From the NCBI GenBank assembly GCA_028282505.1, contig JANQHV010000411.1:1-56252 (forward strand): DNA of 56,252 nucleotides. Direction: 5' to 3'. The notes below the pieces were generated by a model. The model saw only the letters and a list, made by a program, of their open reading frames with translations, was not told the origin of the DNA and did no database searches. How positions within the stretch are numbered: position 1 is the first letter of the stretch; each line of letters opens with the position of its first letter. Positions 1,836-44,917 of this stretch are shown here, piece by piece. A program made the position numbers and the translations under genes. The DNA is from SAR324 cluster bacterium (GTDB lineage Bacteria; SAR324; NAC60-12).

Positions 1836-3074
1836 TTATTGAGAAGCCCAATTCCGTTGTCCCCAATTCCCTTGTCCCCATATGAGATCAGTTACCAAAA
1901 GTTTAGAAGACCAGTTTTTTTCTCCCCAATTTCCATCACCCCACACCAAAACGTTGGAAGTTGCAATTGGATCACAGGTAATTGGATTATTATATAAACA
2001 TTCCACATCTACAGGGCTCAATTCCCCTTGAAAAATACGAACTTCATCAATCAATCCTTTAAAAGGTTGACCAGCACCATGATTATTATCACGTGCTCCA
2101 ATATTGCTAGAAGGAAGGTTGCTTTGGGTACTCTTTCCATTCAAATCATCTGCTACAATATGGGTATTGAGCGTATTGTCAATATACAGATGGATTCCAC
2201 TACTTTGTCCACTTCCATCGTAGGTTGCAACAATATGATGGAAGTCCCCTGATAACTCTGGATCGTAGGGAATCGGGATACCTTCTGTTTTTGCCTTCAC
2301 ACGCTTTCCAGGTTTATAGCGTAGGTTAAAGTAGACTTCTTGTTTTTGGAAAAACATCACCCAGCCGCTTTTCGGCTTACTAGAGGTATTTATTTTACCA
2401 ATAATGTTCCTCTTTGGCTTTTTCTCACTACGCTTGAGCCATAATGAAATGGAAAATGGCTCATGCCAATTAAAGGCAAGAGGTGATAATGACGTATTAT
2501 CATTCAAATCAACATACATATTGCCATCAAACACCAAGGCCTGTCCGCCATCGAAACCATTTACATATTGATCTACTCCATTTTGGGCAACACCATGGTT
2601 GTCATTTCCTGAAGAATCAAGCAGATTGTTATCGAACGACCATCGACCCACTTCTTTCAGGATGTTTGCATCCGTAGTGATTGTGATTTGCAGATCATTA
2701 TATGGCTTTTGTTTTTTTGCGGGATTACTCCCTTTTTTTAGACGAAACTGAACTGCTATGTTTTGGCCAATATAACTACCAAGATCAAACTCTAATTCAT
2801 TTTCTCCCGAGGAGGCAGGTTCTTCATGAATGAGCGTAAATTCGTTATTCTTTTTGGCATTTTCTGCACCTATTAGAATTTGCAGATATTCATGGTCGTA
2901 TTTCTGAAAATTATATTGCAGGTGCATGGTTGCTATTTCTGTTTCCCTCAGATCTAAAATATGAATTGATTTCCAAAACTTACTCGCATGCGCTGTTTGG
3001 GAAAAAACAAGGGACAGAAAAAGAAAACATGCCAACTTGAAACACAATAAATTTTTCTTTTGGATTAAGGACAT
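1836..3074 (-). CDS. Secreted LamG/concanavalin-A-like lectin domain protein
   Basis: ORF 1836-3134. The likely start is the internal Met (MSLIQKKNLL..FSQTAHA signal peptide). ..LVFDG..YVDL.. and ..HIVATYDG..IHLYIDN..GLIDEVRIF.. fit the LamG_3 pattern. The C-terminus carries two WGxGNWGxxNW repeats. Confidence 0.6.
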   Translation of the reverse strand: MSLIQKKNLLCFKLACFLFLSLVFSQTAHASKFWKSIHILDLRETEIATMHLQYNFQKYDHEYLQILIGAENAKKNNEFTLIHEEPASSGENELEFDLGSYIGQNIAVQFRLKKGSNPAKKQKPYNDLQITITTDANILKEVGRWSFDNNLLDSSGNDNHGVAQNGVDQYVNGFDGGQALVFDGNMYVDLNDNTSLSPLAFNWHEPFSISLWLKRSEKKPKRNIIGKINTSSKPKSGWVMFFQKQEVYFNLRYKPGKRVKAKTEGIPIPYDPELSGDFHHIVATYDGSGQSSGIHLYIDNTLNTHIVADDLNGKSTQSNLPSSNIGARDNNHGAGQPFKGLIDEVRIFQGELSPVDVECLYNNPITCDPIATSNVLVWGDGNWGEKNWSSKLLVTDLIWGQGNWGQRNWASQ

Positions 3075-3141
3075 GTCGTTGTTCCTGTTATTTAGTGAGT
3101 TAACATTAAATGACGGTGAGGAAAGAAAAAACAAGTTTCAC

Positions 3142-3876: not shown

Positions 3877-4070
3877 GTATATGGGGACGAAGTACCCAAT
3901 TTGTCGGGGAAATGCATTTTTTTGAAAAAAATAGTAATGATGAAAATATTATTTGAATCATAAAAATTAAATTAGGGGGAAGAAAATATAAAATTTTTTA
4001 TTTTTCAACTTATTGAAATTATTGAGAAATAAAATCTCCCCGGAAAATTGGGTACTTCGTCCCCATATAC
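3877..4070. mobile_element. 194-bp MITE, family C, with 34-bp terminal inverted repeats
   Basis: gtatatggggacgaagtacccaatttgtcgggga (3877-3910) matches the reverse complement of tccccggaaaattgggtacttcgtccccatatac (4037-4070) with 2 mismatches. The interior is AT-rich and non-coding. Confidence 0.75.
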
Positions 4071-4341
4071 AAAAAAAATGTTTTTGCTATTTGGAAATAT
4101 GTTTTGTTAAGAAGCAAAGGCAATATCGACTTTTTTGTTCTTCAGATGGGTTGGCAGGAACGAAAAATACATTAGCTTTTATGCTGACAATGTCCGAATT
4201 TTTAGTAGCAACTCAGTTCATCATGATAAACGTTGTCTGGTAATGATAAAGGAAACACATGAAGCATCCCTCTCAACAGAAAATATTTCGGAGAGAATTT
4301 ATACACTTATTGGCTGTTGCTCAATGACACTCAAAATGTCT

Positions 4342-5160: not shown

Positions 5161-5470
5161 GCCCGTTTGCCATTTTAAGCGGGCTCGTTGATGTCAATTA
5201 TTTTCAGATGTTGCTGCTTATGGACATTGTGCGGCTAAAGATGAAACCTATTATGGACTTCGAGGCAATATGGTGATGAGTTTCGATGGTATCATTACAG
5301 GAATCACACTGACTGCCGCTAATGTTGATGAACGTGATTCTCTCTACGAAATTACACGAAATATCCATGGACTCTTAATCGGTGATAAAGGTTTTATTCG
5401 TCCAAGTCTCAAGGAAGATTTATTGAAAGCCAATATTGATCTTCAAACGGCTCTGCGTCAGAATATGAGT
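5161..5470 (+). mobile_element. IS982-like insertion sequence, copy 2 (internal fragment, truncated at both ends)
   Basis: Collinear with the reverse complement of 1380-1740 but lacking the 79-bp insert. ORF 5270-5584 shares MVMSFDGIITGITLTAANVDERD...ALRQNMS with copy 1, then diverges after 5470. Confidence 0.7.
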
Positions 5471-5599
5471 AAGGCGTTAAGTTTATTCAATAATATTACC
5501 AATACTGGACTTAAGTGGAAAATCAATAAATCAAAAGTTTTACAATGTACCCTGCTCAACGAGAGTTCTAATCGCCTGAAATGATTATTTAAAAAAATC

Positions 5600-5633
5600 T
5601 CCCCGGAAAAATAGGTACTCCTTCCCCATATAC
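5600..5633 (+). repeat. Solo family-C terminal repeat (right-end orientation) abutting the truncated IS982-like copy
   Basis: tccccggaaaaataggtactccttccccatatac closely matches 4037-4070. About 25 nt of subterminal sequence (tgaaatgattattt..aaaatc) also resembles the MITE interior. Confidence 0.65.
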
Positions 5634-5919
5634 AAAAATCTTCGATTCTGTTATGCCATGACTGAATGATTGACCTTGTTCAATATTCCGACTTGGAATC
5701 AATCAATTTCTTCTTGTCACATTCGTCATCTTGTCGGTCTTGCTCATCTTAAACCTTTTGGAATTTAGGGATTGTTTCTTTAGTTTTGAAATTCTTGTCA
5801 AAAGGGTAAGAAAACTTGAAGTTTCCGGTGAGAAACCTCGCTTGGCTTTTGGATTTATTCGTGAAAAAGTATGTATCTAGATATTTATATATATTAAAAT
5901 TATGTAATACAGGAGGATC

Positions 5920-14351: not shown

Positions 14352-14517
14352 TTAAGAACCTGTTTGAAAAACCTGATTTTGATGTAAAACCGCCTCATTG
14401 GCGTCTGTTTTGAGAAAATTTGCGTTAAAGAGACTGGCTATGCCTTAAATTTTCTTAAGAATCCGCTCAACGAGATCGATTTTTCACGACGAATCAGCTT
14501 TTCTAGACAGGTTCTAA
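14352..14517 (+). mobile_element. Foldback/MITE-like element, family B, copy 2
   Basis: Termini ttaagaacctgt (14352-14363) and acaggttctaa (14507-14517) are inverted. The two halves of the element pair as a long imperfect palindrome. Homologous to 121-290 in the opposite orientation. Confidence 0.7.
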
Positions 14518-29313: not shown

Positions 29314-29757
29314 TTACACGTGATGTGCCAAAATTTTATCGAGGCTGAACCGTCCTGTTTCATGATTGATGAGATGGAAGCATGCTCCCAACAGGCAAAG
29401 ATTTTTCACGAAATTGCTGCGTTGATACACATCCCACAGCCAATGCCACTGCTCTGGCAGATTGTCAGGGTAAGCAATGAGAGATGGGGCATGGATGAGA
29501 ACCGTCACCACAATCAGGAATACTCCGAGCACAGCAGCTCCCAATTGAGTTCGATATCCGAGCATGACAGATCCACCCCCCAACAATAGCACCAGTCCTG
29601 CCATGATAGAAGCCAGTCGTTTGAAGACAAACCAGTCGGGCATCATAGTTTGAATAATCTGATCTGCAAATAGGTGTTCGGCACCAAGTCCCAAAAAAAT
29701 AATACTGAACAGGAGGCGAAACAAAAGATCGGTAATGTCATAGTTTATTTTTATCAT
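29314..29757 (-). CDS. DoxX-family membrane protein
   Basis: 147 aa with four hydrophobic segments. ..FLGLGAEHLF.. and ..LLLGGGSVMLGYRTQLGAAVL.. fit the DoxX pattern. Confidence 0.55.
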   Translation of the reverse strand: MIKINYDITDLLFRLLFSIIFLGLGAEHLFADQIIQTMMPDWFVFKRLASIMAGLVLLLGGGSVMLGYRTQLGAAVLGVFLIVVTVLIHAPSLIAYPDNLPEQWHWLWDVYQRSNFVKNLCLLGACFHLINHETGRFSLDKILAHHV

Positions 29758-30631
29758 CGTCTACCCATTTTTGAATATGTGGTAAGCAGCGGTAAAGCAA
29801 GTGGTGGTATACATATCTTGGTAAGATACGACGAAGGATATGAAAAACCCATGCGTCGATTGTGGCCGGTATGCGCAGTGGAGGCTTGTCTTGATTCATG
29901 ACTTTGATAATTCTTGCGGCAATGTTGTCTGGTGTTGCCCAGGCACCATTCATCATTTTGGCGATCATGCGACTCATGTGCTGATAATAGTAATAATAGG
30001 GAGAGGATTGATTTGAAAGAGCATCATGACTCCTTTCTGTGAAGCGCACATTGGTAAAAGAATTGGAATGGATGAATCCAGGAGCGACCAGAGATACGTT
30101 GATGCCCCAGGAACGCATTTCATACCACAACGCCTCTGAAGCTCCCTCCAGTGCAAATTTAGAAGCACTGTAGGAGCCCATAGTAGGCATTGCCATCATG
30201 CCACCTACCGAAGACACATTGATGATATGTCCTCGTCTTTTCTTTCTCATAGAGGGCAAAACCAGCCGCGTCAAGTGCATAGGGCCAAAATAATTCACCC
30301 GCAGTTGTTCCATTTCATCTTCAGGAGTCATGTGCTCCACGACAGAGCGGAATGAAATGCCTGCATTATTGACCAGCACATCCACTCCTCCCCAGGCTGC
30401 CTCAATTTCATCAATGACAGGTTTTTGAGACTCAAAATCAGTCACATTCAGAGGGCGAATGAGAAAATTGTCAGCCTCTGTTAATCCTTCTTTGGAAAAA
30501 CGGACAAGGGAACTTTTTCGGGCTGTAATCACAGTGCGGAAATTGGACCGCTGAAGTTGACGTGCCAGGGCCAGCCCAATGCCTGTACTGGCTCCTGTGA
30601 CTAACACCACTCGATTTTTGATATTTCTCAC
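29738..30631 (-). CDS. Short-chain dehydrogenase/reductase
   Basis: VVLVTGASTGIGLALA (TGxxxGxG), NNAG, and catalytic YSASKFAL (YxxxK). Confidence 0.85.
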   Translation of the reverse strand: MRNIKNRVVLVTGASTGIGLALARQLQRSNFRTVITARKSSLVRFSKEGLTEADNFLIRPLNVTDFESQKPVIDEIEAAWGGVDVLVNNAGISFRSVVEHMTPEDEMEQLRVNYFGPMHLTRLVLPSMRKKRRGHIINVSSVGGMMAMPTMGSYSASKFALEGASEALWYEMRSWGINVSLVAPGFIHSNSFTNVRFTERSHDALSNQSSPYYYYYQHMSRMIAKMMNGAWATPDNIAARIIKVMNQDKPPLRIPATIDAWVFHILRRILPRYVYHHLLYRCLPHIQKWVDDDKNKL

Positions 30632-33494: not shown

Positions 33495-33645
33495 GGCCGA
33501 ATGAGTATGTTGGGCAATTCTACCCCTAACCTCTGGGTGGCAATCTGCTCCTCAGGGAGAGAGAGCTGTCTTGGAATAAGTACATAGTCATTATATGCAT
33601 TTTTTTCTTTTTTTTAACTATTTGAATTCATTGCATAAAAAAATC

Positions 33646-33679
33646 TCCCCGGAAAAATAGGTAGTCCTTCCCCATATAC
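33646..33679 (+). repeat. Solo family-C terminal repeat
   Basis: tccccggaaaaataggtagtccttccccatatac matches 5600-5633 and 4037-4070. Upstream atgcattttttt / tatttgaattca resemble the MITE interior, but no left repeat is present. Confidence 0.65.
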
Positions 33680-33929
33680 AACTTTTTTGTTTTGCGGTAT
33701 GAGTTTTTGGATCAGAAGAAAAGTAGCAGCAGGGCTGGTACTAAAGCAGATCCCATATTGTGAAATAGAATGTTTTTCTAAGAAAAGCTTTGCAATTTGT
33801 CACTCGAAACAAATGTGAAAGGTTTTGAAGATCTCTCGCTATGCTCGAGATGACAACGTACAGCGCAAAACAATATTTTTTAAGATTTTGTTTAAAAACC
33901 ATTCATCTTTATATTAAGGAGGAAAGCAA

Positions 33930-34964
33930 ATGAGAAAAATCTCTTATACCCAAAAAACAACCACCTGGCTCAAATTTGTTGCCTTTATTGCAATATTCAT
34001 GGTGGCAACAGCATTAGTGATGGCTGAAAATCAAACATCTATGAGTTTCATTGCCATTGGCGATACTCCCTATTCTGAAAAAGAAAACACACGCATTAAA
34101 ACCGAGATTGCCAAAGCAATCAAAGAGAAAAATCCACCCTTTGTGGTGCATTATGGGGATTTTAAAGGGGGTGGAGAAACCTGTACGGAAGAACTCTTGA
34201 CAGAACGGCGAAATGACATTTATGGTCTGTTGCCCGGAAAGGTTTTCTACACGCCTGGGGACAATGAATGGACCGATTGTGATCGTTCTTTTTTGAAACC
34301 TCCGGTCTCCGAACTAGGAAAATTGGACTTTTTGCGGCAACTGTTTTTTGAAAAACCAATGGATTTGCCAGAAAGCTGGCATTATGCCCGTCAAGCCAAT
34401 TTCCCAGAAAACGCCCGTTGGATGAAAGACGGTGTGTTTTTCATGACTGTCCATTTGGTATCAACCAACAATGGGCGTATAGACATTCTGAAAGATGACA
34501 TTGAAGCCGCCCTGGCGTTGGTGGATGCACGGGATCAAGCCAATCGTGTCTGGATGGAGGAAACGTTCAGTGTGGCATTGAGAACAGGTGCTAAAGCGAT
34601 GGTGATTGTCACTCAAGCCGATGTGACTTCTCCAGATGGCGGCGGTCCCTGTACGGCTACCAACCGTATGAATTGTGACGCATTCCAGAGTTTTCGCAGC
34701 AATCTGCAACTCAATGCCGGTGGTTTTGCAAAGCGAGGCGAATCATTGAAGCCGGTTTTGTTATTACATGGAGATACCAACCCCTATTGTATGGATAAAA
34801 AATTTGGAGGCAAACGTGCTCCTAACTTGTGGCGACTGAATGCCTGGGGAGATTTTAAAGATCCAGCAGATGCCACAGTGGTTACTGTTCAGCCGGACGA
34901 CCAACAAACTCCGTTTAAAGCAGAAACATTGCTGGGGCATGAAATTCCAGCAGACGGATGTTAG
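33930..34964 (+). CDS. Secreted calcineurin-like metallophosphoesterase
   Basis: Signal/anchor ..FVAFIAIFMVATALVMA. Motifs IGDTPY, YGDFKGG, GDNEW and LLHGDTN. Confidence 0.7.
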   Translation: MRKISYTQKTTTWLKFVAFIAIFMVATALVMAENQTSMSFIAIGDTPYSEKENTRIKTEIAKAIKEKNPPFVVHYGDFKGGGETCTEELLTERRNDIYGLLPGKVFYTPGDNEWTDCDRSFLKPPVSELGKLDFLRQLFFEKPMDLPESWHYARQANFPENARWMKDGVFFMTVHLVSTNNGRIDILKDDIEAALALVDARDQANRVWMEETFSVALRTGAKAMVIVTQADVTSPDGGGPCTATNRMNCDAFQSFRSNLQLNAGGFAKRGESLKPVLLLHGDTNPYCMDKKFGGKRAPNLWRLNAWGDFKDPADATVVTVQPDDQQTPFKAETLLGHEIPADGC

Positions 34965-34999
34965 TAAAAAAGATTGCCACAGAGACGCAGAAACCCTCG

Positions 35000-35034
35000 C
35001 CCCTCCTTGGCAAGGAGGGGAAATTGTTTTTTTT
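35000..35034 (+). terminator. Rho-independent terminator
   Basis: cccctcctt (35000-35008) pairs with aaggagggg (35012-35020), followed by aaattgtttttttt. It lies 36 nt after the stop of the preceding gene. Confidence 0.6.
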
Positions 35035-35091
35035 GCAAAACTGACCGGAAATATGATCAACTCTCAAAAAACAAAGAAAGGATGGTGAATT

Positions 35092-36927
35092 ATGATTGAT
35101 TTAAACGTGGTGGGTGCTCATGTCGGTCGAGCATTTCCTGACGAATTGTATCTGGGCATTTTGATGCCAAACATCACCCCGGCCAAGCAGTACCACCTTT
35201 TTGCAGATATCATTCATGCCAATGACCAGTTCAACCCCGACATTGGACCGGTTTCGGTAGAGTTGCATGGAGATGACAGCGGCATGTGGAGTTATGGAGG
35301 CAGCTTGGGGGCTTTGAACGGAGGAGCTGGCAGTCACTTTGGTGATGTAGGCCGCTACCTTTACCGCTATCGGCTGTTGCGAAACAATGTCACCATCATT
35401 GACTATTTTGCGGATCCTTACGCCACCACTAGTGGTCCTGGCACCAACTCGGCTTTTGACTACCCCCCACTACCGAATCACCAATGGCAGGATCAAGGCT
35501 TTGTGGTGCCCAGTCTCGATGACGTGATCATGTACGAATTGATGGTGGATGACTTTGCAGAAAATTTTGAAGGCGTGATGGGGCGTCTGCCTTACCTGAA
35601 AAGCCTGGGAGTCAATTGCATTGAACTGATGCCGATTACCAATATTCCAGAGCCGTATCGTTGGGGTTATATGCCCATGAGTTATTTTGCCATTGAAGAG
35701 CGTTATGGAGGTAAGGAAAAGCTGAAACCACTGGTCGATGCCTGTCATGGTGAGGGAATTGCCGTCATACATGATGCGGTGTATGCTCACATGCATGAGG
35801 AATTCTGTTTCCGCAATGTTTACTGGGCAGCAGGTGAAGAGAATCCTATGATTGGTCCCTTTGCCGGTGACATGTTTGGGGTTGGTCCTGATTTCAATAA
35901 GGACTTTGCCTACGATTACTTCATGGCGGTCAATCATTATTTCATCAATGAGTTGCACATGGATGGCTTCCGCTATGATTATGTGCCAGGTTTCTATGAC
36001 GGCCCTGTTGGCAGTGGTTACGCCCGAATTGTTCACGACACCTACCAGACCACCAAACACATTGCTCGCTTCAATGGAGGAAATTACAACCGCATCATTC
36101 AGGCCGCTGAATATCTGGACAAACCGAAAGAAGTGTTGCAGGAAACGTATACCACTGCCAGCAAACGATGGTGGCCCATGCTCAAAGCACAGGACATGGT
36201 ACGCGAGGGTGGCAATGTGATGGAGGGGTTTGTCCATGACATGCTTTTGATCGATTTCACTTCACCCTGGCCCACGGAATATCATAACGGTCAGGACAGT
36301 TTTCCAGTCGCCCCCTTGCAATTCATCGAATCCCATGACAAGAGCCGCTTGATGTATCTGCTCAGTGGGGAACATTCTCCTTATCATGGTGGTTTTGACC
36401 TCTTCAACCGCAACCGTACCCATTGGTATCGCCTGCAACCCTATGCCATTGCCCTCATGAGCTCGGTTGGTGTTCCTTTGCTGTGGCAGGGACAGGAATT
36501 TGGAGAAATCTATGGCAAACACGATGATGGTGGTTCCAGGGTGTTGGCTGCTCGTCCATTGCACTGGAACTATTTTTATGAAAGGGGAGGCCGGGATCTG
36601 GTCAATATTTACCGTCGCATGGGCCAACTGCGCCACCAGTATCAAGCCCTGCGCAGCCGCCTTTCTTATTATTTCCATGAGCACTCCAATCTGGACTGGG
36701 GGCTGGTTGCCTATCAACGCAGCCCCGATAACAACAATGACCCCACGGTGATGATCTTGCTGAACTTCGGCAGTTTCAATGGCACACTCCATGTCCCTTT
36801 CCCGAAAGGTGGACGTTGGCATGAACAGATCAATGATCATGGAGAGATTCTGGACGTGCCTCACGATTCTGCGGTGATGGGCATCGAGATTCCTTCCAAC
36901 TATGGCAAAGTGTTCATTTCCGCATAG
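35092..36927 (+). CDS. GH13 alpha-amylase-family glycoside hydrolase with an N-terminal E-set/CBM48-like region
   Basis: GVNCIELMPI.., DAVYAH.., MDGFRYDYVPGF (nucleophile region) and QFIESHDKSR (region IV). Confidence 0.75.
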   Translation: MIDLNVVGAHVGRAFPDELYLGILMPNITPAKQYHLFADIIHANDQFNPDIGPVSVELHGDDSGMWSYGGSLGALNGGAGSHFGDVGRYLYRYRLLRNNVTIIDYFADPYATTSGPGTNSAFDYPPLPNHQWQDQGFVVPSLDDVIMYELMVDDFAENFEGVMGRLPYLKSLGVNCIELMPITNIPEPYRWGYMPMSYFAIEERYGGKEKLKPLVDACHGEGIAVIHDAVYAHMHEEFCFRNVYWAAGEENPMIGPFAGDMFGVGPDFNKDFAYDYFMAVNHYFINELHMDGFRYDYVPGFYDGPVGSGYARIVHDTYQTTKHIARFNGGNYNRIIQAAEYLDKPKEVLQETYTTASKRWWPMLKAQDMVREGGNVMEGFVHDMLLIDFTSPWPTEYHNGQDSFPVAPLQFIESHDKSRLMYLLSGEHSPYHGGFDLFNRNRTHWYRLQPYAIALMSSVGVPLLWQGQEFGEIYGKHDDGGSRVLAARPLHWNYFYERGGRDLVNIYRRMGQLRHQYQALRSRLSYYFHEHSNLDWGLVAYQRSPDNNNDPTVMILLNFGSFNGTLHVPFPKGGRWHEQINDHGEILDVPHDSAVMGIEIPSNYGKVFISA

Positions 36928-37093
36928 AGCATGGTGTTGTTTGCCACGCAGGCACAAAGACACAGAAATATAAATTCCTTTTCCTTAGGGAGAATTTCCT
37001 TTCCCTGGGGAGAAGGCCAGGATGGGGGAAAAAAGGCTCCCTTCTCCTAATGTGAAAAGTGGTTTAATTTTTGGTTCAATAAGAGAGAAGGTG

Positions 37094-39955
37094 ATGAAAA
37101 AAATTATCAGTTTATTTGTAATCGGTTTAGTGTGTTTTTCAACGAATTCCTTTTGTCAGGAAAGTTTTACGATTGGGGTTGCAGGACCGCTCTCCCAAAA
37201 ATACGGTCAGAGTATTATCAATGCGGTTCAGCTTTATTTTGATCAGGTCAATGAAAACGGTGGTATTGATGGACAAAAGTTAATGATTGAACGGTTTGAT
37301 GATCAAAACGATGCTGATATAGCCAAACAGCATGCAGAAAAAATTGCTCAAAGTGATGTATTGTCTGTGATTGGCCATTGGTATAGCTCGGCTTCACTGG
37401 CTGCAGGGCAGGTATATCTGGAAAATCAAATACCTGCTATTAGCCCTGGGTCCACTAATATCAATGTGACCAAAAATAATGAATGGTATTTTCGAACTAT
37501 ATACAATGATACGTTAACTGCGGCATTCTCTGCTAAATATGTTCATGATGTTTTTAAAGCAAAGAAGGTCAGCGTTGTTTCAGATAATCAAGCATTTGGC
37601 AAATTTCTCAGTGACACTTTTATCAAGGATGCACAGCAGCAGGGGTTGAATGTCGTTTATCAACATACATTTGATATTAACAATCCTCAGTTTGATCGTA
37701 TCGTACAACAGATGCAGCAGATAGACCCTGGAGTCATTTTTCTTGGCATGCAGGGGAAAGAAGCAGCTGAATTGCTTTTCAAGCTCAGAAGTGCTGAAAT
37801 TAAGAATAACATTGTTGGCGGCTCCTCTCTTTCCGGGCAGAGTTTCATGGGACAACTGACTGAACTGACAGAAAAATCCAATAAACGGGTGAACTTTTTT
37901 TTACAAAATACGTATGTAGCCGCACCTTTAATATATGATACAGCGAATTACGGTGCTCAGATTTTTAAAGAAAAATACTTCAAAACTTATAAGACAGAAA
38001 GTGACTGGGGAGCCGCTTATAGCTATGATGCGGCAAAAGTGATTGTAGCGGCCATACGAAGATCGGGAATCAATGCTTCTACAGATATAAAAGAGGCGCG
38101 TCTTAGGTTGCGGGATACCTTATCTGAGATGCATAGTCAGGTCAAAGCAGTCAAAGGCATTACAGGCCTGAACTATTTTAATGCTGATGGCGATGCTGTT
38201 AAACCCGTATCTATGGGAATCTATAAAGGGGCTCACTTGGTTTCGGCCATGATTCAATATCAACCTGTCCCTAATCCTAGTGAACTTTACAATATTGAAG
38301 AGCAAATTAAAAAGAACCAGATTGTTCAGGTTGGTGATTTGTACCTCTATAAAACCAAAGTTGTCAATACTGGAATCATGCTCCATAAAGTCTCCAATAT
38401 CGACTTTAAAGAAGGGCTGTACGATCTGGATTTTTCTCTATGGTTCAGATATCGGGGCGATTTTGATGTTAAGGAAATCGAATTCCAGAATAGCCTCAGT
38501 CCGATTGAATTGGATAGCCCCCTTAAAGTAGAACGAGATGGAGACACCCAGTACCAGCTTTTTAAACTGAAAGGGAGGTTCAAGCTGGAGACAAAACCGG
38601 ATCTTTTAGGACGATATACCTATGAACTGAGTTTTAAGCATAAAATACTGGCTCGTCATAAAATTATTCTGGTCCCTGATGAAGTCGGTATGGGAATTGA
38701 CAGCGTGAGCGAGTTCATTAATCAGCTGAATGAGAGAAAAGTTATTGCAGCGAGATATGATAGGATCATTGATCAAATTGCTGTATATGAGAAAATAACT
38801 TTTGAACCTGGTTTGGGAGCTCTGGAACACTCAGCAGCCAATGTCAATTACTCCAATTTTTCCTTTTCCTTTCGAATAACAAAAACAGGGATTGGCTTAA
38901 TGCTGGATAATAAAATTTATATGCTGATCGCAGCGGTTATTTTAACACTGTTCGTTAGTTATCTGGTGGGAGGGCCTGGTTACCGTCTAATGTACCGCTT
39001 TGTCAAGAAAACAGAAACAAGATTTGATGATGACCTGCTGGAACTGATGCATTATCCCGTTCAAATTATTATTATCTTAATCGGTTTTTATTTTATCAAT
39101 GAAACCCTGGAGGGCCTTATTTCAAAGACCATGTATGACATTTTTGACAAAATGATCGAGCTCGGTATTGTCGTCACTATCTTTATGGGCATTGTTTATC
39201 GCAGTAGCTCAATGGTGAAATTTTATTTCGAGCAAATGGCAGAAAATACAGAATCTCAGTTGGACGATTTATTTGTTCCCTACATCTCCAAAATAATCAA
39301 AACGATTTCTGTGATATTAGTGTTGATGAAATTCGCCGAAATCATTTTCGGACTGTCAGCCACCGCCTTTCTGGGCGTACTTGGTGGTTTAAGTCTGGCC
39401 TTTGGTTTGTTATTTAAAGATATCATTGCTGAAGTGGCTGCGTGTCTGATGATCTTTCTGGATGATCTGTATCATGAAGGAGATACGGTTCGTGTGGGGG
39501 GTGGAGCGAAAGGAGTGGTTGAAAAAATTGGTCTAAGGACAACCAGAATTCGTCTTTTTAAAGGGCCTATTGTTAAAATTGCCAATACCAAGATTGTTCA
39601 GGAGCATGTTGAAAATTATTCCCGTTCAGAACTGTTGATGTGTAATTATAAATTGAAAATCAATGGTATCTCCAGCTTGGAATTAAGCTCACTGGTGCAA
39701 AGCATTCGAGACATTCTGGAGCAGGATGAAAATGTGCGCAAGGACTTCGGGAGACTGGTCAATTTCCAAAGTTTGGAAGGCAACAAACGTGTGATTGCCA
39801 TTGTATTCAGAACAGAGCCGGATTGGGAGGTGAACCAATATACGCTGGAAAGAGTGAATTACCGCATTTTAAATCTGCTGGAAGCCAACAATATCAGTAA
39901 ACTGGATTACCAGTTTGTCTACATGCAGGCCCTTGAAGCAAAAGCTGCGAATTAA
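37094..39955 (+). CDS. Periplasmic type-1 binding-protein (LivK-like) domain fused to an MscS-family channel
   Basis: I used the internal ATG MKKIISLFVIGLVCFSTNSFC (signal peptide, RBS gagaaggtg). FTIGVAGPLS..YGQS..NAVQLYFDQVNENGGIDGQKL..FDDQND is Peripla_BP_6-like. The C-terminus ..FKDIIAEVAACLMIFLDDLYHEGDTVRVGG.KGVVEKIGLRTTRIRLF.G..VKIANTKI.. is the MscS signature. Confidence 0.7.
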   Translation: MKKIISLFVIGLVCFSTNSFCQESFTIGVAGPLSQKYGQSIINAVQLYFDQVNENGGIDGQKLMIERFDDQNDADIAKQHAEKIAQSDVLSVIGHWYSSASLAAGQVYLENQIPAISPGSTNINVTKNNEWYFRTIYNDTLTAAFSAKYVHDVFKAKKVSVVSDNQAFGKFLSDTFIKDAQQQGLNVVYQHTFDINNPQFDRIVQQMQQIDPGVIFLGMQGKEAAELLFKLRSAEIKNNIVGGSSLSGQSFMGQLTELTEKSNKRVNFFLQNTYVAAPLIYDTANYGAQIFKEKYFKTYKTESDWGAAYSYDAAKVIVAAIRRSGINASTDIKEARLRLRDTLSEMHSQVKAVKGITGLNYFNADGDAVKPVSMGIYKGAHLVSAMIQYQPVPNPSELYNIEEQIKKNQIVQVGDLYLYKTKVVNTGIMLHKVSNIDFKEGLYDLDFSLWFRYRGDFDVKEIEFQNSLSPIELDSPLKVERDGDTQYQLFKLKGRFKLETKPDLLGRYTYELSFKHKILARHKIILVPDEVGMGIDSVSEFINQLNERKVIAARYDRIIDQIAVYEKITFEPGLGALEHSAANVNYSNFSFSFRITKTGIGLMLDNKIYMLIAAVILTLFVSYLVGGPGYRLMYRFVKKTETRFDDDLLELMHYPVQIIIILIGFYFINETLEGLISKTMYDIFDKMIELGIVVTIFMGIVYRSSSMVKFYFEQMAENTESQLDDLFVPYISKIIKTISVILVLMKFAEIIFGLSATAFLGVLGGLSLAFGLLFKDIIAEVAACLMIFLDDLYHEGDTVRVGGGAKGVVEKIGLRTTRIRLFKGPIVKIANTKIVQEHVENYSRSELLMCNYKLKINGISSLELSSLVQSIRDILEQDENVRKDFGRLVNFQSLEGNKRVIAIVFRTEPDWEVNQYTLERVNYRILNLLEANNISKLDYQFVYMQALEAKAAN

Positions 39956-40040
39956 CTGCTTTTAAAAAAATTCTCTGTGCCCTCTGAGACTCTGTGGCAA
40001 CCTTTTTGGTTTCGGCTATGCCGAGTTAGGATATGGAAAT

Positions 40041-40190
40041 ATGAAAATTTTAATCGCAGAAGACGACCCCCTTCTTCAAGAGTTGACGAAAATGATAGAG
40101 GGTTGGGGATACGAATTCGACCTTGTTTCTGATGGTCAAGCGGGATACATAGATCCGTTAGAGGGCTATTCACTAAAGTCTAGATGGTAG
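40041..40190 (+). pseudogene. Remnant of a response-regulator receiver gene (first ~33 aa only)
   Basis: MKILIAEDDPLLQELTKMIEGWGYEFDLVSDGQ is a canonical REC N-terminus. The sequence then degenerates and stops after 49 codons. Confidence 0.6.
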
Positions 40191-40318
40191 GATGGGTTTA
40201 CCCATCAACAAAGATATGAACTCATTCATGGGTAATGGGCTACAGGGTGACTCACTGAATTTTACACTTTGGGCGCAGGTACCAGGCAGACCAACCACGC
40301 ACAGAAGAAACCCCAACA

Positions 40319-42970
40319 ATGACAATTGATAGTGAATTAGTTGAACAAAGACTGCAAGGATTGGATCGGGACTCAGTAGTCGCCTTTGCCTACCGGTGTG
40401 CTTTGAGGGTGGTGCCAATTCTTGGAGCCAAAGGGAATTTCAACTATTGGGAAGAAAAGCAAGAAAACCATCTCTTTGCAGTCTTTCATGCCCTGGATGT
40501 AACGGGGAGATTTTTATATGAAATAAAGTCTGCCGCCTATGCCGGTGCCTACGTCACCGCCTATGCCGCCTCCTATGCCGCCGCCGACACTGCCGCCGCC
40601 GCCGCCGACACTGCCTACGCCTACGCTGCCGCCGCCGCCGCCGCTGACACCGTCTACTTTGCTGCTAGATCTGCTGTTAGAGCCGTTGATGCCACTACCT
40701 TTTTTAAAAAAAATCTTTCCGAAGTCATTGAGCGAATGATTAACCGAGATTTAGATTACTTTGCTACCACTAACAAAAGCAAAAAAAATGCAAGGGATTT
40801 GTTAACTCTGCCCTTATGGAATGAGGTTCCAGAGTCCTGGACAGATCTGCTTGACCAATTTAAAAAAGCCTTAAAAGGCATCGACTGTGATTTTTGGTAC
40901 CCCATTTTTGAGAAACGTTTTCATAATGAACAACCTGATCTTGATGCCTTGAAACAAAGAGTAGAGCTGCCTCCAGAAATCAAGGAACAGGGACACCTGG
41001 CCATCATCCGATACCTGGAATCTCTTCAGAGGGAAGGAGAAAAACGCTTGAAAGAAGTGAAAGTGGTTTTTTTAGGGGATGGTGGAGCGGGCAAGACCTC
41101 TCTGGTTAACAAAATATTAGATCCTCAAGCAGACCTGGCTGAAGATGAAAAGCCCACTCCGGGAGTGGATATCCACAGATGGGAGCTGGAAGAAGAGATT
41201 CAAGCCCACTTATGGGATTTTGGCGGGCAGGTTATTATGCATGCTACCCATCAATTTTTCATGTCCAGGCGCTCAGTTTATGTGATTGTGCTGGATGGCA
41301 GGAAAGAACAGAATCCGGATTACTGGCTGCATCATGCCAAGACATTTGGTGGTGACTCACCGGTCCTGATCGTCATGAACAAGATCGACCAACATTATCA
41401 TGAGCTGGAGAGAAATACTCTGATGCACAAATACTCCCAAATTAAAGGTTTTTTTCCCCTGTCTTGTAAAGACAACAGAGGTCTGAAACACTTCACTGAT
41501 CAATTGAGCCAAACATTGAAAGAGACAGAAGCATGGGATTCCTCCTTGCCAGTTAACTGGTATAATGTCAAAGACCGCTTGCAGGAGAAAAATGAAGATT
41601 ATATCACTCTGGAAGCCTATCAAAAGGTTTGTCAGGGGCAAAAGATCCAGGAAGCAGAGACTTGTGAGGTACTATTGGAGCATTTGAATGATTTGGGCAT
41701 TGTTGTTTATTTTGAAAAACTGTTGCATCTGAATACCTATGTGCTCAATCCCCGCTGGTTGACCAATGCGGTCTACCGGGTGATCAACTCCGATGAATTG
41801 AAAGAAAAAAAAGGAATCATTACTTTTGATGAGTTGGAGGGTATTTTTCAAAAAAATAAGAATCCGTATCCTGTTCCGAAGGACAAATATGGCTTCATTA
41901 TGGAGGCCATGCGGGAATTTGAATTAGCTTATATCCTCAATAAAGATCAACCGACTGTGGAGATGATTTATCTCATCCCAGATCTGCTGGAATCGGATGA
42001 GCCTGCTGATTTGAACTTTGATAAGACAGGAGCTTTGATACGTTTCCGTTTTTCCTTCCCCTTTTTGCCAACCTCCATCATGGCTCGCTTTATTGTGCGG
42101 ATGGCCGACGATATCGATGGAGATTTACGTTGGCGGTCCGGAGTTGTCCTTTCGAACAGCACCTTTGAGAGCAGGGCACTGGTCACCGCCAATAACGATC
42201 AACGGTTGATTCATGTCTGGGCCAAAGGGGGGCAACAAAGGGACTACTTTGCAGTGATTCGAAATCATTTTCATCGGATATTCTCCAGTTACGCCAATTT
42301 TGAATATGATGAACAAGTTCCCTTAACCGAGAATGAAGCAGTTGTTGAAGACTATCAGCAATTGATTGGCCTGGAGAAAATGGGAGAAGCAACCTATTCA
42401 TCCGGTAAATTACAGCAAACCTTTGACCTCAAGGCCCTTTTGAATGGCATCGAAGCTGAAGAAAAAAGGAGAACAAAAGCAAACAGTGCAAAGGAAAAGA
42501 GAGAACAATGGGTAGACTTAGAAGGAAAAGACGATATTGTGCACCGTTCAGCAAAGCAGATATTTATCAGCTATAGCCGTCATGATAAAGAATGGCTGGA
42601 TCAACTGCTGGTCCATTTGGGGGCACTGGAACATGGGGGAATTGGCTATTGGTATGACGAAGATATCATGGCCGGTGATCGCTGGAATGAGAAAATAAAG
42701 ACGGCTATCCAGTGTTGTCAGATGGCAATATGTTTAATTTCCAAGGAGTTTCTCAATTCTAAATTCATTCGGGAAAGAGAAATACCAGTATTTTTAGAAA
42801 AAGATGTCACAATAATACCAATTCTCTTAGAACCATGCGGATGGAAAGTCGTATCGTGGCTCAAGGAACGTCAATTCATCAATGACATTCCCCTGTCTAA
42901 AATAAAAGCTGAGGAGTATGATGACATTTTTAGTAGCCTTATGGAGCAGATTGTTGAGCACTTTGAGTGA
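40319..42970 (+). CDS. ROCO-type protein: Ala/Tyr-rich helical N-domain, Roc GTPase, COR-like region and a C-terminal TIR domain
   Basis: GDGGAGKT (aa 253-260), DFGGQ (300-304) and NKID (354-357). A ~300-aa COR-like region follows. FISYSRHDKEW..YWYDEDIMAGDRW..ICLISKEFLNSKFIREREI (aa 749-822) is a TIR_2-type domain. Confidence 0.8.
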   Translation: MTIDSELVEQRLQGLDRDSVVAFAYRCALRVVPILGAKGNFNYWEEKQENHLFAVFHALDVTGRFLYEIKSAAYAGAYVTAYAASYAAADTAAAAADTAYAYAAAAAAADTVYFAARSAVRAVDATTFFKKNLSEVIERMINRDLDYFATTNKSKKNARDLLTLPLWNEVPESWTDLLDQFKKALKGIDCDFWYPIFEKRFHNEQPDLDALKQRVELPPEIKEQGHLAIIRYLESLQREGEKRLKEVKVVFLGDGGAGKTSLVNKILDPQADLAEDEKPTPGVDIHRWELEEEIQAHLWDFGGQVIMHATHQFFMSRRSVYVIVLDGRKEQNPDYWLHHAKTFGGDSPVLIVMNKIDQHYHELERNTLMHKYSQIKGFFPLSCKDNRGLKHFTDQLSQTLKETEAWDSSLPVNWYNVKDRLQEKNEDYITLEAYQKVCQGQKIQEAETCEVLLEHLNDLGIVVYFEKLLHLNTYVLNPRWLTNAVYRVINSDELKEKKGIITFDELEGIFQKNKNPYPVPKDKYGFIMEAMREFELAYILNKDQPTVEMIYLIPDLLESDEPADLNFDKTGALIRFRFSFPFLPTSIMARFIVRMADDIDGDLRWRSGVVLSNSTFESRALVTANNDQRLIHVWAKGGQQRDYFAVIRNHFHRIFSSYANFEYDEQVPLTENEAVVEDYQQLIGLEKMGEATYSSGKLQQTFDLKALLNGIEAEEKRRTKANSAKEKREQWVDLEGKDDIVHRSAKQIFISYSRHDKEWLDQLLVHLGALEHGGIGYWYDEDIMAGDRWNEKIKTAIQCCQMAICLISKEFLNSKFIREREIPVFLEKDVTIIPILLEPCGWKVVSWLKERQFINDIPLSKIKAEEYDDIFSSLMEQIVEHFE

Positions 42971-43112
42971 ATTCAAAAGGTGAATCATAGATTGGGGCTG
43001 AACAAAGGTCGATGGCTTGTTTGCCAGTATCATGTGTGCTACTCTAAATGATTAGGAGATTTATAGGTACTTTTTCCTTGAGGTGCGAAGAAAAAAGACG
43101 ATGGGAGGAAAT

Positions 43113-43502
43113 ATGATTACTACTGAAGGACTGATAAATCCAGAAGATCTGAGTGAATCTAATCTTTTAGAAACAACACGCAAAATGCTGGAGGTCGTTC
43201 ACGAGATTGCTGATAAATACCCCACACGAGATATGGAACTGATGGAACAGCTAGTGGATGGACAAGGCCGTGTTGAACAAAGGATTGGAGAGGTTGAGAG
43301 TTCCATACAGACTCTCAGTTCTGACATTGATGCTGGTTTTGGAAGGCTTGAGAAAAAGCTAGAAACCGAAATTGGCAGTTTGCGTGACGAAATGGAAGGA
43401 TTACGTGACGAAATGGGGGGATTGCGTAATGATGTAAACCAGCAACTCAACGAACAAACGGAATTGTTACGCACAATCGCCCGTAATACTCAACGTGATT
43501 GA
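43113..43502 (+). CDS. Small coiled-coil protein
   Basis: I used the internal ATG after RBS gggagg. Heptad-like repeats ..LRDEMEGLRDEMGGLRNDV... No family recognised. Confidence 0.45.
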   Translation: MITTEGLINPEDLSESNLLETTRKMLEVVHEIADKYPTRDMELMEQLVDGQGRVEQRIGEVESSIQTLSSDIDAGFGRLEKKLETEIGSLRDEMEGLRDEMGGLRNDVNQQLNEQTELLRTIARNTQRD

Positions 43503-43570
43503 GTGAAGGAACAACTGATTAGGAAATAATGATAAACTGGCAAGAGGTTTGTGCGATACCTCAAACAACG

Positions 43571-44245: not shown

Positions 44246-44917
44246 TCAATTCTTTTTATAAGGTTTGCCATATTTGTTGAGGTGAGAACTGGGCAGACGC
44301 AACACCTGTATCTCAAAATTATGGGTTTCCTGGGAATTAGGGGCGGTTGTTATTTTTTTAGAAGTGAGCTTGGTGCCTTCTACCCAAACCCGCAATTTGT
44401 AGTTGCCTGCGGGGATTCCTGTGATCCTATAGTTTCCATCCGTTTTGGTGAGAGCATACTTGTTGTTTTTGAGCACCAATAAATTGGAGATCATTTGTGG
44501 ATGGATATTGCAGAAAATTTTAACCAACCCTGGTTTATCAAAAACTATGGATTTTTCGACAGGTGCTTTGAACAACCCCAAATCAAACTTTTTTGCTTTG
44601 GACAGTGAGAAAACATTGTGATTGAAAGGGTCCTGGTTTCTAAAAACAACAGTATCCCCCTTCGTAAGCGGGAGGACTCTTTGAGAGAAAGTTTTATTGA
44701 CCTGATCGTGGTGCAGTGGTTTTTTCTTAGTACTCGACTCTTCTAAACCTGTAATAAAGACAACCGCATTTTCATTGCTGGGAGCGAGCCTCCAGTCCTC
44801 TTCATTGGAAGTGCGTTCCCAAATGGTAATTTTACCGTTTATTTCTCCTGCAAACAAAGTTGCTGTTATCAGCATGGATGCAATGCATGGCAGAAGAGAT
44901 TTCAGATTGAACATCAT
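44246..44917 (-). CDS. Secreted cupredoxin-like plus carboxypeptidase-regulatory-like domain protein
   Basis: ..GDTVVFRNQDPFNHNVFS...FDLG...IFCNIHPQM.. is cupredoxin-like. ..TDGNYRITGIPAGNYKLRVW.. is CarboxypepD_reg-like. Confidence 0.45.
   Translation of the reverse strand: MMFNLKSLLPCIASMLITATLFAGEINGKITIWERTSNEEDWRLAPSNENAVVFITGLEESSTKKKPLHHDQVNKTFSQRVLPLTKGDTVVFRNQDPFNHNVFSLSKAKKFDLGLFKAPVEKSIVFDKPGLVKIFCNIHPQMISNLLVLKNNKYALTKTDGNYRITGIPAGNYKLRVWVEGTKLTSKKITTAPNSQETHNFEIQVLRLPSSHLNKYGKPYKKN

Follow-up and report, generated by a model that had tools for sequence, protein, structure and literature searches.

What is a GTPase of the Roco family doing in a SAR324 cluster bacterium with a TIR domain attached to its C-terminus? 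The question is raised by one gene in the 56,252-nt stretch of DNA that we analysed (contig JANQHV010000411.1 of GenBank assembly GCA_028282505.1, hereafter the window), which encodes an 883-aa protein composed of an N-terminal helical module, a Roc GTPase domain, the COR-A and COR-B domains and a TIR domain. Our preferred answer, held with moderate confidence, is that the protein is a single-chain, NLR-like counter-invader of the Roco (AP-GTPase+COR) class that probably acts against phages by abortive infection, its TIR domain being predicted to cleave NAD+ through Glu821. The gene and its modules, each of which occurs as a single copy within the window, are laid out as follows.

40319-42970, + strand: complete gene for the N-module–Roc–COR-A–COR-B–TIR protein, 883 aa (ATG start, stop codon 42968-42970; open reading frame (ORF) list and Pfam)
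40319-40963, + strand: N-terminal helical module (N-module), aa 1-215, putative sensor or regulatory module (alignments, AlphaFold model)
40964-41053, + strand: pre-Roc linker helix, aa 216-245 ('ELPPEIKEQGHLAIIRYLESL...'), which aligns to Methanosarcina barkeri Roco2 (PDB ID 4WNR) from residue 11 and to the equivalent stretch of the Chlorobium tepidum Roco protein (CtRoco)
41054-41533, + strand: Roc G domain, aa 246-405, with the P-loop at 41075-41098 (Pfam, TIGR00231, motifs, PDB matches; predicted local distance difference test score (pLDDT) 85-95)
41549-41989, + strand: COR-A domain, aa 411-557 (Pfam, alignment to 4WNR)
42038-42448, + strand: COR-B domain, aa 574-710 (Pfam, matches to 3DPT, 3DPU and 6HLU)
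42557-42967, + strand: TIR domain, aa 747-883, with the codon of the candidate catalytic Glu821 at 42779-42781 (Pfam TIR_2 and TIR, PADLOC, alignments)

An earlier inspection of the same DNA without database searches (the sequence-only reading) had described an 883-aa ORF with a small-GTPase signature, a COR-like region behind it and a TIR_2-type domain at the C-terminus, and had proposed a search with Roc, COR and TIR_2 profiles as a check. The profiles returned strong matches, and all three parts of the description hold. The four Pfam domains each exceed their curated cut-offs: Roc (aa 248-357, E = 1e-27, 97 bits versus a cut-off of 27), COR-A (aa 411-557, E = 7e-34), COR-B (aa 574-710, E = 8.5e-27) and TIR_2 (aa 748-855, E = 5.5e-17, 62.8 bits versus a cut-off of 28). 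A second Pfam family, TIR, matches the same C-terminal region (E = 1e-5, 25.8 bits versus a cut-off of 21.3), and the NCBIfam model TIGR00231 (small_GTP) is also above its cut-off on the Roc domain. The GTPase motifs are intact and lie where they had been read, with GDGGAGKT at residues 253-260 (G1), DFGGQ at 300-304 (G3/switch II) and NKID at 354-357 (G4), joined by a G5-like SCK at 382-384; K355, D357, S382 and C383 are near-invariant columns in the family alignment. The TIR domain carries FISYS at 749-753 and REREI at 818-822. Pfam and NCBIfam found no NB-ARC, NACHT or AAA_16 domain anywhere in the protein, making the Ras-like Roc domain its sole NTPase, and Pfam found no leucine-rich repeat (LRR).

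The core of the protein is a bona fide Roco by both sequence and fold. A phmmer search of PDB sequences matched the RocCOR structure of M. barkeri Roco2 (4WNR) at E = 4e-91 and CtRoco (3DPU, 6HLU and 8R4B) at E of about 1e-79 in a single continuous alignment over residues 217-718, with 30-41% identity to these two proteins across 326-522 aligned columns. The Roc domain of LRRK2 was matched at E of about 1e-15. A full-length AlphaFold model built from a 42-sequence alignment has a pLDDT of 77.6 and a predicted template modelling score (pTM) of 0.71, with the Roc-COR region mostly at 85-95. Foldseek searches with this model ranked 6HLU best (E = 8e-32), followed by 3DPU, 4WNR, LRRK1 and LRRK2; the TM-scores on the target were 0.83 for 3DPU and 0.85 for 4WNR, and LRRK1 and LRRK2 matched at E of about 1e-17 to 1e-20. 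The Roco family includes LRRK2, implicated in Parkinson's disease, and DAPK1, and in the solved Roco proteins COR-B is the dimerisation part of COR. The protein shares with CtRoco and M. barkeri Roco2 the Roc-COR-A-COR-B order as well as the pre-Roc linker helix; unlike them, it carries the N-module in place of N-terminal LRRs and ends in a TIR domain that they lack.

The C-terminal domain is a candidate enzyme. The sequence-only reading had placed 'Glu 819/821' at the catalytic position of NAD-cleaving TIRs, and we can now separate the two residues. In the alignment with the TIR structure 7UXR, 'TEYELNG' falls onto 'REREIPV', which sets Glu821 opposite the Glu of the 'YEL' motif, and a MAFFT alignment of TIRs from Roco- or N-module-associated relatives shows the Glu821 column to be invariant in 10 of 10 sequences. 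Position 819 varies in the same alignment (E, K, N, D, S, L or Q). Because 821 is invariant and aligned to the 7UXR Glu whereas 819 is variable, the predicted catalytic position is Glu821 and not Glu819. Other TIR features include the 'FISYS' beta-A strand, 'WYDE' and a Gly-Asp BB-loop segment. The domain thus resembles bacterial TIR NADases and cyclases (AbTir, 7UXR, ThsB) in being of TIR_2 type with a conserved Glu; it differs in being tethered to a GTPase switch, whereas theirs are standalone proteins or parts of two-gene systems.

Comparison with homologues reveals a constant switch with changing ends. The closest full-length homologue, P0002, is 71% identical overall, with only a 3.1-kb contig on record, and the conservation is distributed unevenly: 91% in Roc, 80% in COR-A, 81% in COR-B, 73% in the head of the N-module, 64% in its tail, 61% in the TIR domain and 48% in the repetitive array of the N-module described below. 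In P0004 and P0005 the N-module and Roc-COR persist (44-47% identity overall), and the C-terminal ~150 aa are unrelated to TIR. Further Roc-COR homologues end in TIR_2 (P0048, P0079, P0083 and P0110), in an Mrr-type nuclease (Mrr_cat; P0076, P0103, P0112 and P0117) or in DUF4263 (P0055), and P0104 carries TIRs at the N-terminus. LRR_8, LRR_4 or LRR_14 is present in most of the Roc-COR homologues found. The surroundings of two relatives are of a defence type: P0004 is flanked by a second LRR-Roc-COR gene, an AAA_21/AAA_15 ATPase and a Schlafen/AlbA_2 protein, and P0005 by an AlwI-type restriction enzyme, an N6/N4 methyltransferase and a Fic protein. A direct search of GTDB representative genomes and JGI metagenome contigs for close protein relatives was empty, and for the homologue P0003 there was no record.

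At the other end of the protein, the sequence-only reading had described the first ~240 aa as a helical, Ala/Tyr-rich module without an enzymatic motif. It is all-helical and free of Pfam matches, as described; its extent is smaller, ~215 aa, since residues 216-245 instead align with the pre-Roc linker of solved Roco proteins. Three parts make up the module: a head that is conserved (aa 1-70, 'vvaFAYRCALRvvPiLg..GNFnYW..hLFAVFHALD'; 'FAYRCALRxLP...GNFDYW...HLFAVFHALD' in the family at large), an Ala/Tyr/Asp/Thr array of low complexity (aa 71-128, DNA 40529-40702) that is encoded by 9/12-nt DNA repeats (D1, 40534-40665), and a tail that is again conserved (aa 129-215). Among 138 members the array ranges from 49 to 121 aa (median 72) and consists of 35% Ala, with Asp, Ser, Thr and Tyr at about 7% each. 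A dedicated AlphaFold model of the module is all-alpha, with 12 helices and a pTM of 0.79, the array being at low confidence. The module of the window protein has no Pfam, NCBIfam or PADLOC family (the top match was a non-significant AbiEi, E = 0.008), and a Pfam scan of 48 standalone members at E <= 0.01 gave no family either. Foldseek found no significant match to its fold in the PDB (best E = 0.66) or BFVD (best E = 1.0), and a profile search of PDB sequences returned poly-Ala artefacts only. Kinship with Imm5/DUF416 was considered and rejected as unsupported, with single matches in one of 58 long members and none in the 48 standalone members.

The module nonetheless defines a widespread family of at least 2,255 clusters. 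When 1.84 billion representative proteins, counted as clusters at 50% identity, were searched exhaustively with an HMMER profile, that number passed E <= 1e-3, of which 734 passed <= 1e-10 and 48 passed <= 1e-30; the Ala-rich composition could inflate some of these E-values, and most matches cover head and tail across the full profile length. It lies at the N-terminus in 139 of the top 152 proteins, among which 65 are standalone (<= 340 aa), 69 carry Roc-COR and a few have two or three tandem copies. Pfam domains on 58 long members comprise Roc (44), TIR_2 (4), EAD11 (2) and AAA_16 (2), together with single cases of DUF4062, Metallophos, KAP_NTPase, AAA_21/15, PNP_UDP_1 and TRADD-like_N. In P0155 and P0233 the N-module is fused directly to TIR_2 without any GTPase, in P0202 it is fused to KAP, and further fusions include a Metallophos-N-module protein and a giant with STAND, DUF4062 and TIR domains. 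The 300-aa standalone protein P0124 is followed 48 nt downstream by the start of a KAP-family NTPase gene (513 aa; L010 8001-10492), a pair that looks like the two-gene counterpart of the N-module-NTPase fusions. Although speculative, it is tempting to think that the N-module might be an unnamed sensor or bait domain of prokaryotic immune NTPases that stands in for LRRs and is interchangeable on Roc-COR, KAP, STAND, AAA_21 or TIR, with the slippage-prone array supplying fast-diversifying recognition surfaces; we put this forward as a tentative proposal that may well prove wrong.

The locus itself was compared with its nearest relatives, which were found through PurC homologues (PurC of the window is 86% identical to that of SAR324-cluster metagenome-assembled genomes (MAGs), in keeping with a SAR324 host), and the comparison delimits the following segment.

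33495-43570, no strand: window-specific 10.1-kb segment that holds unk344, a glycoside hydrolase family 13 (GH13) amylase, a fusion of a periplasmic binding protein with an MscS channel (PBP-MscS), a receiver-like fragment, the Roco-TIR gene and a 139-aa ORF (tblastn and blastn synteny)

On the SAR324 MAG contigs L012 and L013 the gene order is histidine kinase, purC, cinA, extracytoplasmic function (ECF) sigma factor, a 428-aa unknown gene and a major facilitator superfamily (MFS) transporter, with 67-88% protein identity to the genes of the window. There, cinA and the ECF sigma gene lie about 20 nt apart; in the window 10.1 kb stand between them. L014-L016, which are SAR324 relatives at a greater distance, order their genes differently and give no information on synteny. 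In L001, which holds the nearest homologous gene (76.5% nucleotide identity), the match is confined to window positions 40313-42902 and the flanks are unrelated. Because the segment is missing from the nearest SAR324 relatives and the L001 flanks are unrelated, the Roco-TIR gene is accessory and not a conserved syntenic core gene, which bears out the suggestion of the sequence-only reading that it sits in an accessory insertion. One further relative is divided: in L018 (8004-11321) an N-module-Roc ORF (489 aa) and a COR ORF (364 aa) stand apart, with an IS200-type transposase beside them and housekeeping genes (pheT, peptidase M3) around them, and this copy is either a decaying or a split member. 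As an observation in its own right, the L001 flanks (1-340 and 3023-3134) consist of GC-rich hairpin-type repeats ('TTTCCCCTCCTT...AAGGAGGGGTTAAGGGAGGTT') that resemble repetitive extragenic palindromes or miniature inverted-repeat transposable elements and are unlike the flanks in the window.

These properties place the protein next to a group that has been recognized on computational grounds. Kaur, Iyer, Burroughs and Aravind (2021; eLife 10:e70394, PMC8195603) predicted prokaryotic AP-GTPase(Roc)+COR proteins to be counter-invader systems whose N-terminal LRRs evolve rapidly and whose C-terminal position is taken by one of at least 24 alternative domains, TIR included. Their source data contain about 567 'AP-GTPase+COR+TIR' strings which, at two per entry, amount to roughly 280 proteins (e.g. 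Npun_F6039), and about 85% of the AP-GTPase strings are 'LRR-repeats+AP-GTPase' (PMC8195603). The same catalogue has entries of 843-916 aa annotated 'AP-GTPase+COR' with no N-terminal domain (PMC8195603), which suggests that proteins of this size class were seen in 2021 and their N-terminal domain was left unnamed. A TPR-ROCO-TIR protein has also been reported in the red alga Chondrus crispus. As a prediction, then, the Roc-COR-TIR combination is not new, and what differs here is the undescribed N-module. The sequence-only reading had held that such an arrangement was not tested experimentally as a defence architecture; the searchable literature, which leaves out most subscription-only papers, yielded no experiment on a defence role of a bacterial Roco, and the novelty is narrowed by the 2021 prediction of the architecture as a counter-invader (PMC8195603).

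Set against the AP-GTPase counter-invaders, the protein shares the Roc-COR switch, the C-terminal position of the TIR effector and the logic of a sensor that acts through an NTPase switch on an effector. Its relatives have the same variable C-terminus (Mrr_cat, DUF4263, EAD11, TRADD-like_N and PNP_UDP_1) and the same accessory, patchy distribution, with defence-type neighbours for P0004 and P0005 but not for the window gene. Unlike that class, it has no LRRs, residues 1-215 being all-alpha and unrelated to them. STAND/NLR-like TIR proteins of the Avs/bNACHT type are comparable in their single-chain sensor–NTPase switch–TIR effector order and accessory distribution; in contrast, the switch of the window protein is a Ras-like GTPase with COR, not a STAND AAA+-type ATPase, and its oligomerisation geometry therefore likely differs. 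The Roc-COR tandem is also common to eukaryotic Roco proteins, namely LRRK2/LRRK1, DAPK1 and the LRR-ROCO candidate immune receptors of brown algae, and Chondrus crispus shares the ROCO-TIR pairing. On the other hand, LRRK and DAPK use a kinase effector, the repeat sensors of the eukaryotic proteins are ANK, LRR, WD40 or TPR, and identity to the window protein is only 14-17% outside the G domain.

How might such a protein work? In the model that we prefer, the N-module with its fast-evolving, length-variable array would replace the LRR sensor, either recognising an invader-derived cue or keeping the protein autoinhibited. Sensing would then be passed to Roc-COR, which in characterised Roco units alternates between a COR-mediated dimer and a monomer according to the nucleotide state. 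The changed oligomeric state may bring TIR domains together, and the assembled TIRs would form a composite active site around Glu821 and hydrolyse NAD+, so that the infected cell is starved and the infection aborted. Direct depletion of NAD+ would be favoured over the production of a signal because no ThsA-like partner gene lies nearby. The pairing of an NTPase switch with a TIR effector, and the casting of the N-terminus as sensor, had already been suggested by the sequence-only reading, and both fit the swapping of C-termini, the two relatives among defence-type neighbours and the conflict-domain repertoire of the family.

Several points weigh against this counter-invader model. The immune role is a prediction, made from the domains, the accessory status, the C-terminal swapping and the neighbours of relatives. 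Sensing by the N-module is pure inference; no protein of known function resembles the module in sequence or structure. The genes around the Roco-TIR gene in the window are housekeeping or transport genes, among which PADLOC and Pfam found no defence-system matches, so the defence-island argument rests on the two homologues only. No PADLOC model spans the whole protein, the TIR region alone being matched. The absence of the segment from relatives counts for one independent lineage only, since L012 and L013 are nearly identical to each other. As for the switch, CtRoco forms dimers with GDP or without nucleotide and monomers with GTP, a cycle that does not readily explain the activation of a TIR that needs to assemble. 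As for the effector, solved TIRs match weakly (E of about 1e-3 for TRR-2, AbTir (7UWG and 8G83) and the 7UXR TIR), and where AbTir-type TIRs have a Trp ahead of the catalytic Glu, the window protein has Phe816. In the AlphaFold model the beta/alpha order of this domain is TIR-like at a pLDDT of 40-60, with few TIR-bearing sequences in the alignment, and the BB-loop region (779-790) falls below 50; the predicted TIR fold is supported by profiles and not by the model.

Among other explanations, the one that survives best is a Thoeris-like pathway, in which the triggered TIR would make a nucleotide second messenger (an isomer of cyclic ADP-ribose or a related ADP-ribose adduct) for a separate effector elsewhere in the genome. 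The best PADLOC matches of the TIR region are indeed of ThsB type (E = 2.4e-12) and SAVED-TIR (E = 3.2e-11), and in bacterial and plant TIRs one conserved Glu serves both NADase and cyclase chemistries. However, the ThsA pairing that characterizes Thoeris was not found: the neighbours in the window show no SIR2, SLOG or Macro Pfam domain, no ThsA match in PADLOC and no SAVED partner, and homologues with readable surroundings have no conserved partner gene. Single-chain NTPase-TIR proteins are, moreover, generally thought to be self-contained effectors. We consider this pathway unlikely.

Somewhat less likely again is a non-immune signalling role in stress, development or cell-cell communication, in which the TIR domain would serve as a protein-protein adaptor, as in animal Toll-like receptor pathways, and the accessory status would reflect niche adaptation. 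The company of the gene in the window would suit such a role (PBP-MscS fusion, receiver-like fragment and ECF sigma factor being transport or regulatory genes), and no experiment has yet established what prokaryotic Roco proteins do. Nevertheless, the invariance of the catalytic Glu across related TIRs argues for an enzyme, and relatives swap the C-terminus for nucleases and other effector-type domains. The restriction-modification, AAA_21 and Schlafen genes beside two homologues, as well as a patchy distribution with copies that are sometimes decayed, likewise speak against such a role. A role in inter-bacterial or intragenomic conflict, with the N-module sensing a toxin, plasmid or other mobile element or with the whole protein acting as an addiction or toxin module, is less likely still, for although the standalone N-module protein P0125 is encoded beside an Ntox10/Imm27 polymorphic-toxin pair and a DDE transposase, one family member has a weak Imm5 match (E = 2.6e-5) and a BFVD 'Imm-5-like' protein appeared at a non-significant rank, the Imm5 link was not replicated in the 48 standalone members (E <= 0.01), the P0125 gene lies on the strand opposite to the toxin pair, and the restriction-modification neighbours of P0005 point to contexts directed against DNA invaders.

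The immediate neighbours of the Roco-TIR gene are two small ORFs, both of which figured in the sequence-only reading.

40041-40190, + strand: 49-aa ORF with a resemblance, in residues 1-33, to the N-terminal part of response-regulator receivers (sub-threshold Pfam match to Response_reg, E = 0.15, 12.6 bits)
43083-43502, + strand: 139-aa coiled-coil ORF (weak coiled-coil-type Pfam matches, no PADLOC match)

The upstream ORF had been called the remnant of a decayed receiver gene, which is plausible for the 33 receiver-like residues at a Pfam score that is not significant. The small coiled-coil gene reported downstream exists, but it is absent beside the homologues in L001 and L002 and beside P0005, and its membership of the system is doubtful. 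A dispersed repeat motif said to lie just upstream of the gene dissolved into chance 10-12-mers. The sole real dispersed repeat, D2, has its nearest copy 6.6 kb upstream; its copies at 3994-4072, 5557-5635 and 33603-33681 are all intergenic and share a conserved core of ~45 nt ('AAATCTCCCCGGAAAAATAGGTAnTCCTTCCCCATATACAA'), and the third stands at the left edge of the 10.1-kb segment. D2 has no Rfam match and may serve as a regulatory site or represent a small mobile element.

The 10.1-kb segment as a whole looks mosaic. At its boundaries we found no tRNA and no shared junction 9-mers, and no integrase or transposase was present among the ORFs scanned; promoter, terminator and Rfam scans gave nothing above background. 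The GH13 alpha-amylase gene within it (35092-36927) has a GC content of 49.7% against about 41% for the window, and its product shares 81% identity with a protein from a Thermodesulfobacteriota MAG and 76% with one from Thiohalomonadales. None of seven loci found through this amylase was syntenic, and the gene appears to have been acquired horizontally. Also inside the segment, at 37022-39955, is the 977-aa PBP-MscS fusion, whose combination of a periplasmic amino-acid-binding-type domain (Peripla_BP_6/ANF_receptor) with an MscS-type channel suggests a ligand-gated MscS-like channel. Beyond the segment, a short-chain dehydrogenase (29738-30631) and a CarboxypepD_reg-domain protein (44246-44917) are missing from the syntenic region of L012 and L013 as well; with several genes absent from these relatives, the neighbourhood has evidently taken up several small insertions.

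The window also contains inverted repeats. Arms of 243 nt that are 96% complementary lie 3.6 kb apart at 1347-1589 and 5228-5470, accompanied by a second inverted pair of 43 nt (1691-1733 and 5161-5203). The longer arms overlap small ORFs at 1116-1547 on the minus strand and 5270-5584 on the plus strand, and between them lie a 432-aa LamG/Toxin_R_bind_N-like ORF, a 207-aa ORF of unknown kind and an asparagine synthase fragment from the C-terminal end. The arrangement could be an invertible or duplicated cassette. Three adjacent inverted-repeat pairs (I3, I4 and I16; 60-65 nt at 85% and 21 nt at 95%) link 139-288 with 14353-14501, about 14 kb apart.

What prokaryotic Roco proteins do has been asked since 2003, and the 883-aa protein described here offers a compact, apparently intact test case for the idea that LRRK2-type GTPases were originally immune switches. 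It poses two questions in particular, namely whether a Ras-like GTPase, in place of a STAND ATPase, gates a TIR NADase, and how the monomer-dimer cycle of Roc-COR is coupled to effector assembly; an answer to the second would bear on the regulation of LRRK2. The N-module family is fused almost exclusively to conflict-system domains, and many defence loci would be better annotated once it is named and characterised. Should the tentative reading of the N-module as a sensor prove true, the protein would be a tractable entry point both to a new receptor class and to an ancestral immune role of the LRRK2-type GTPases.

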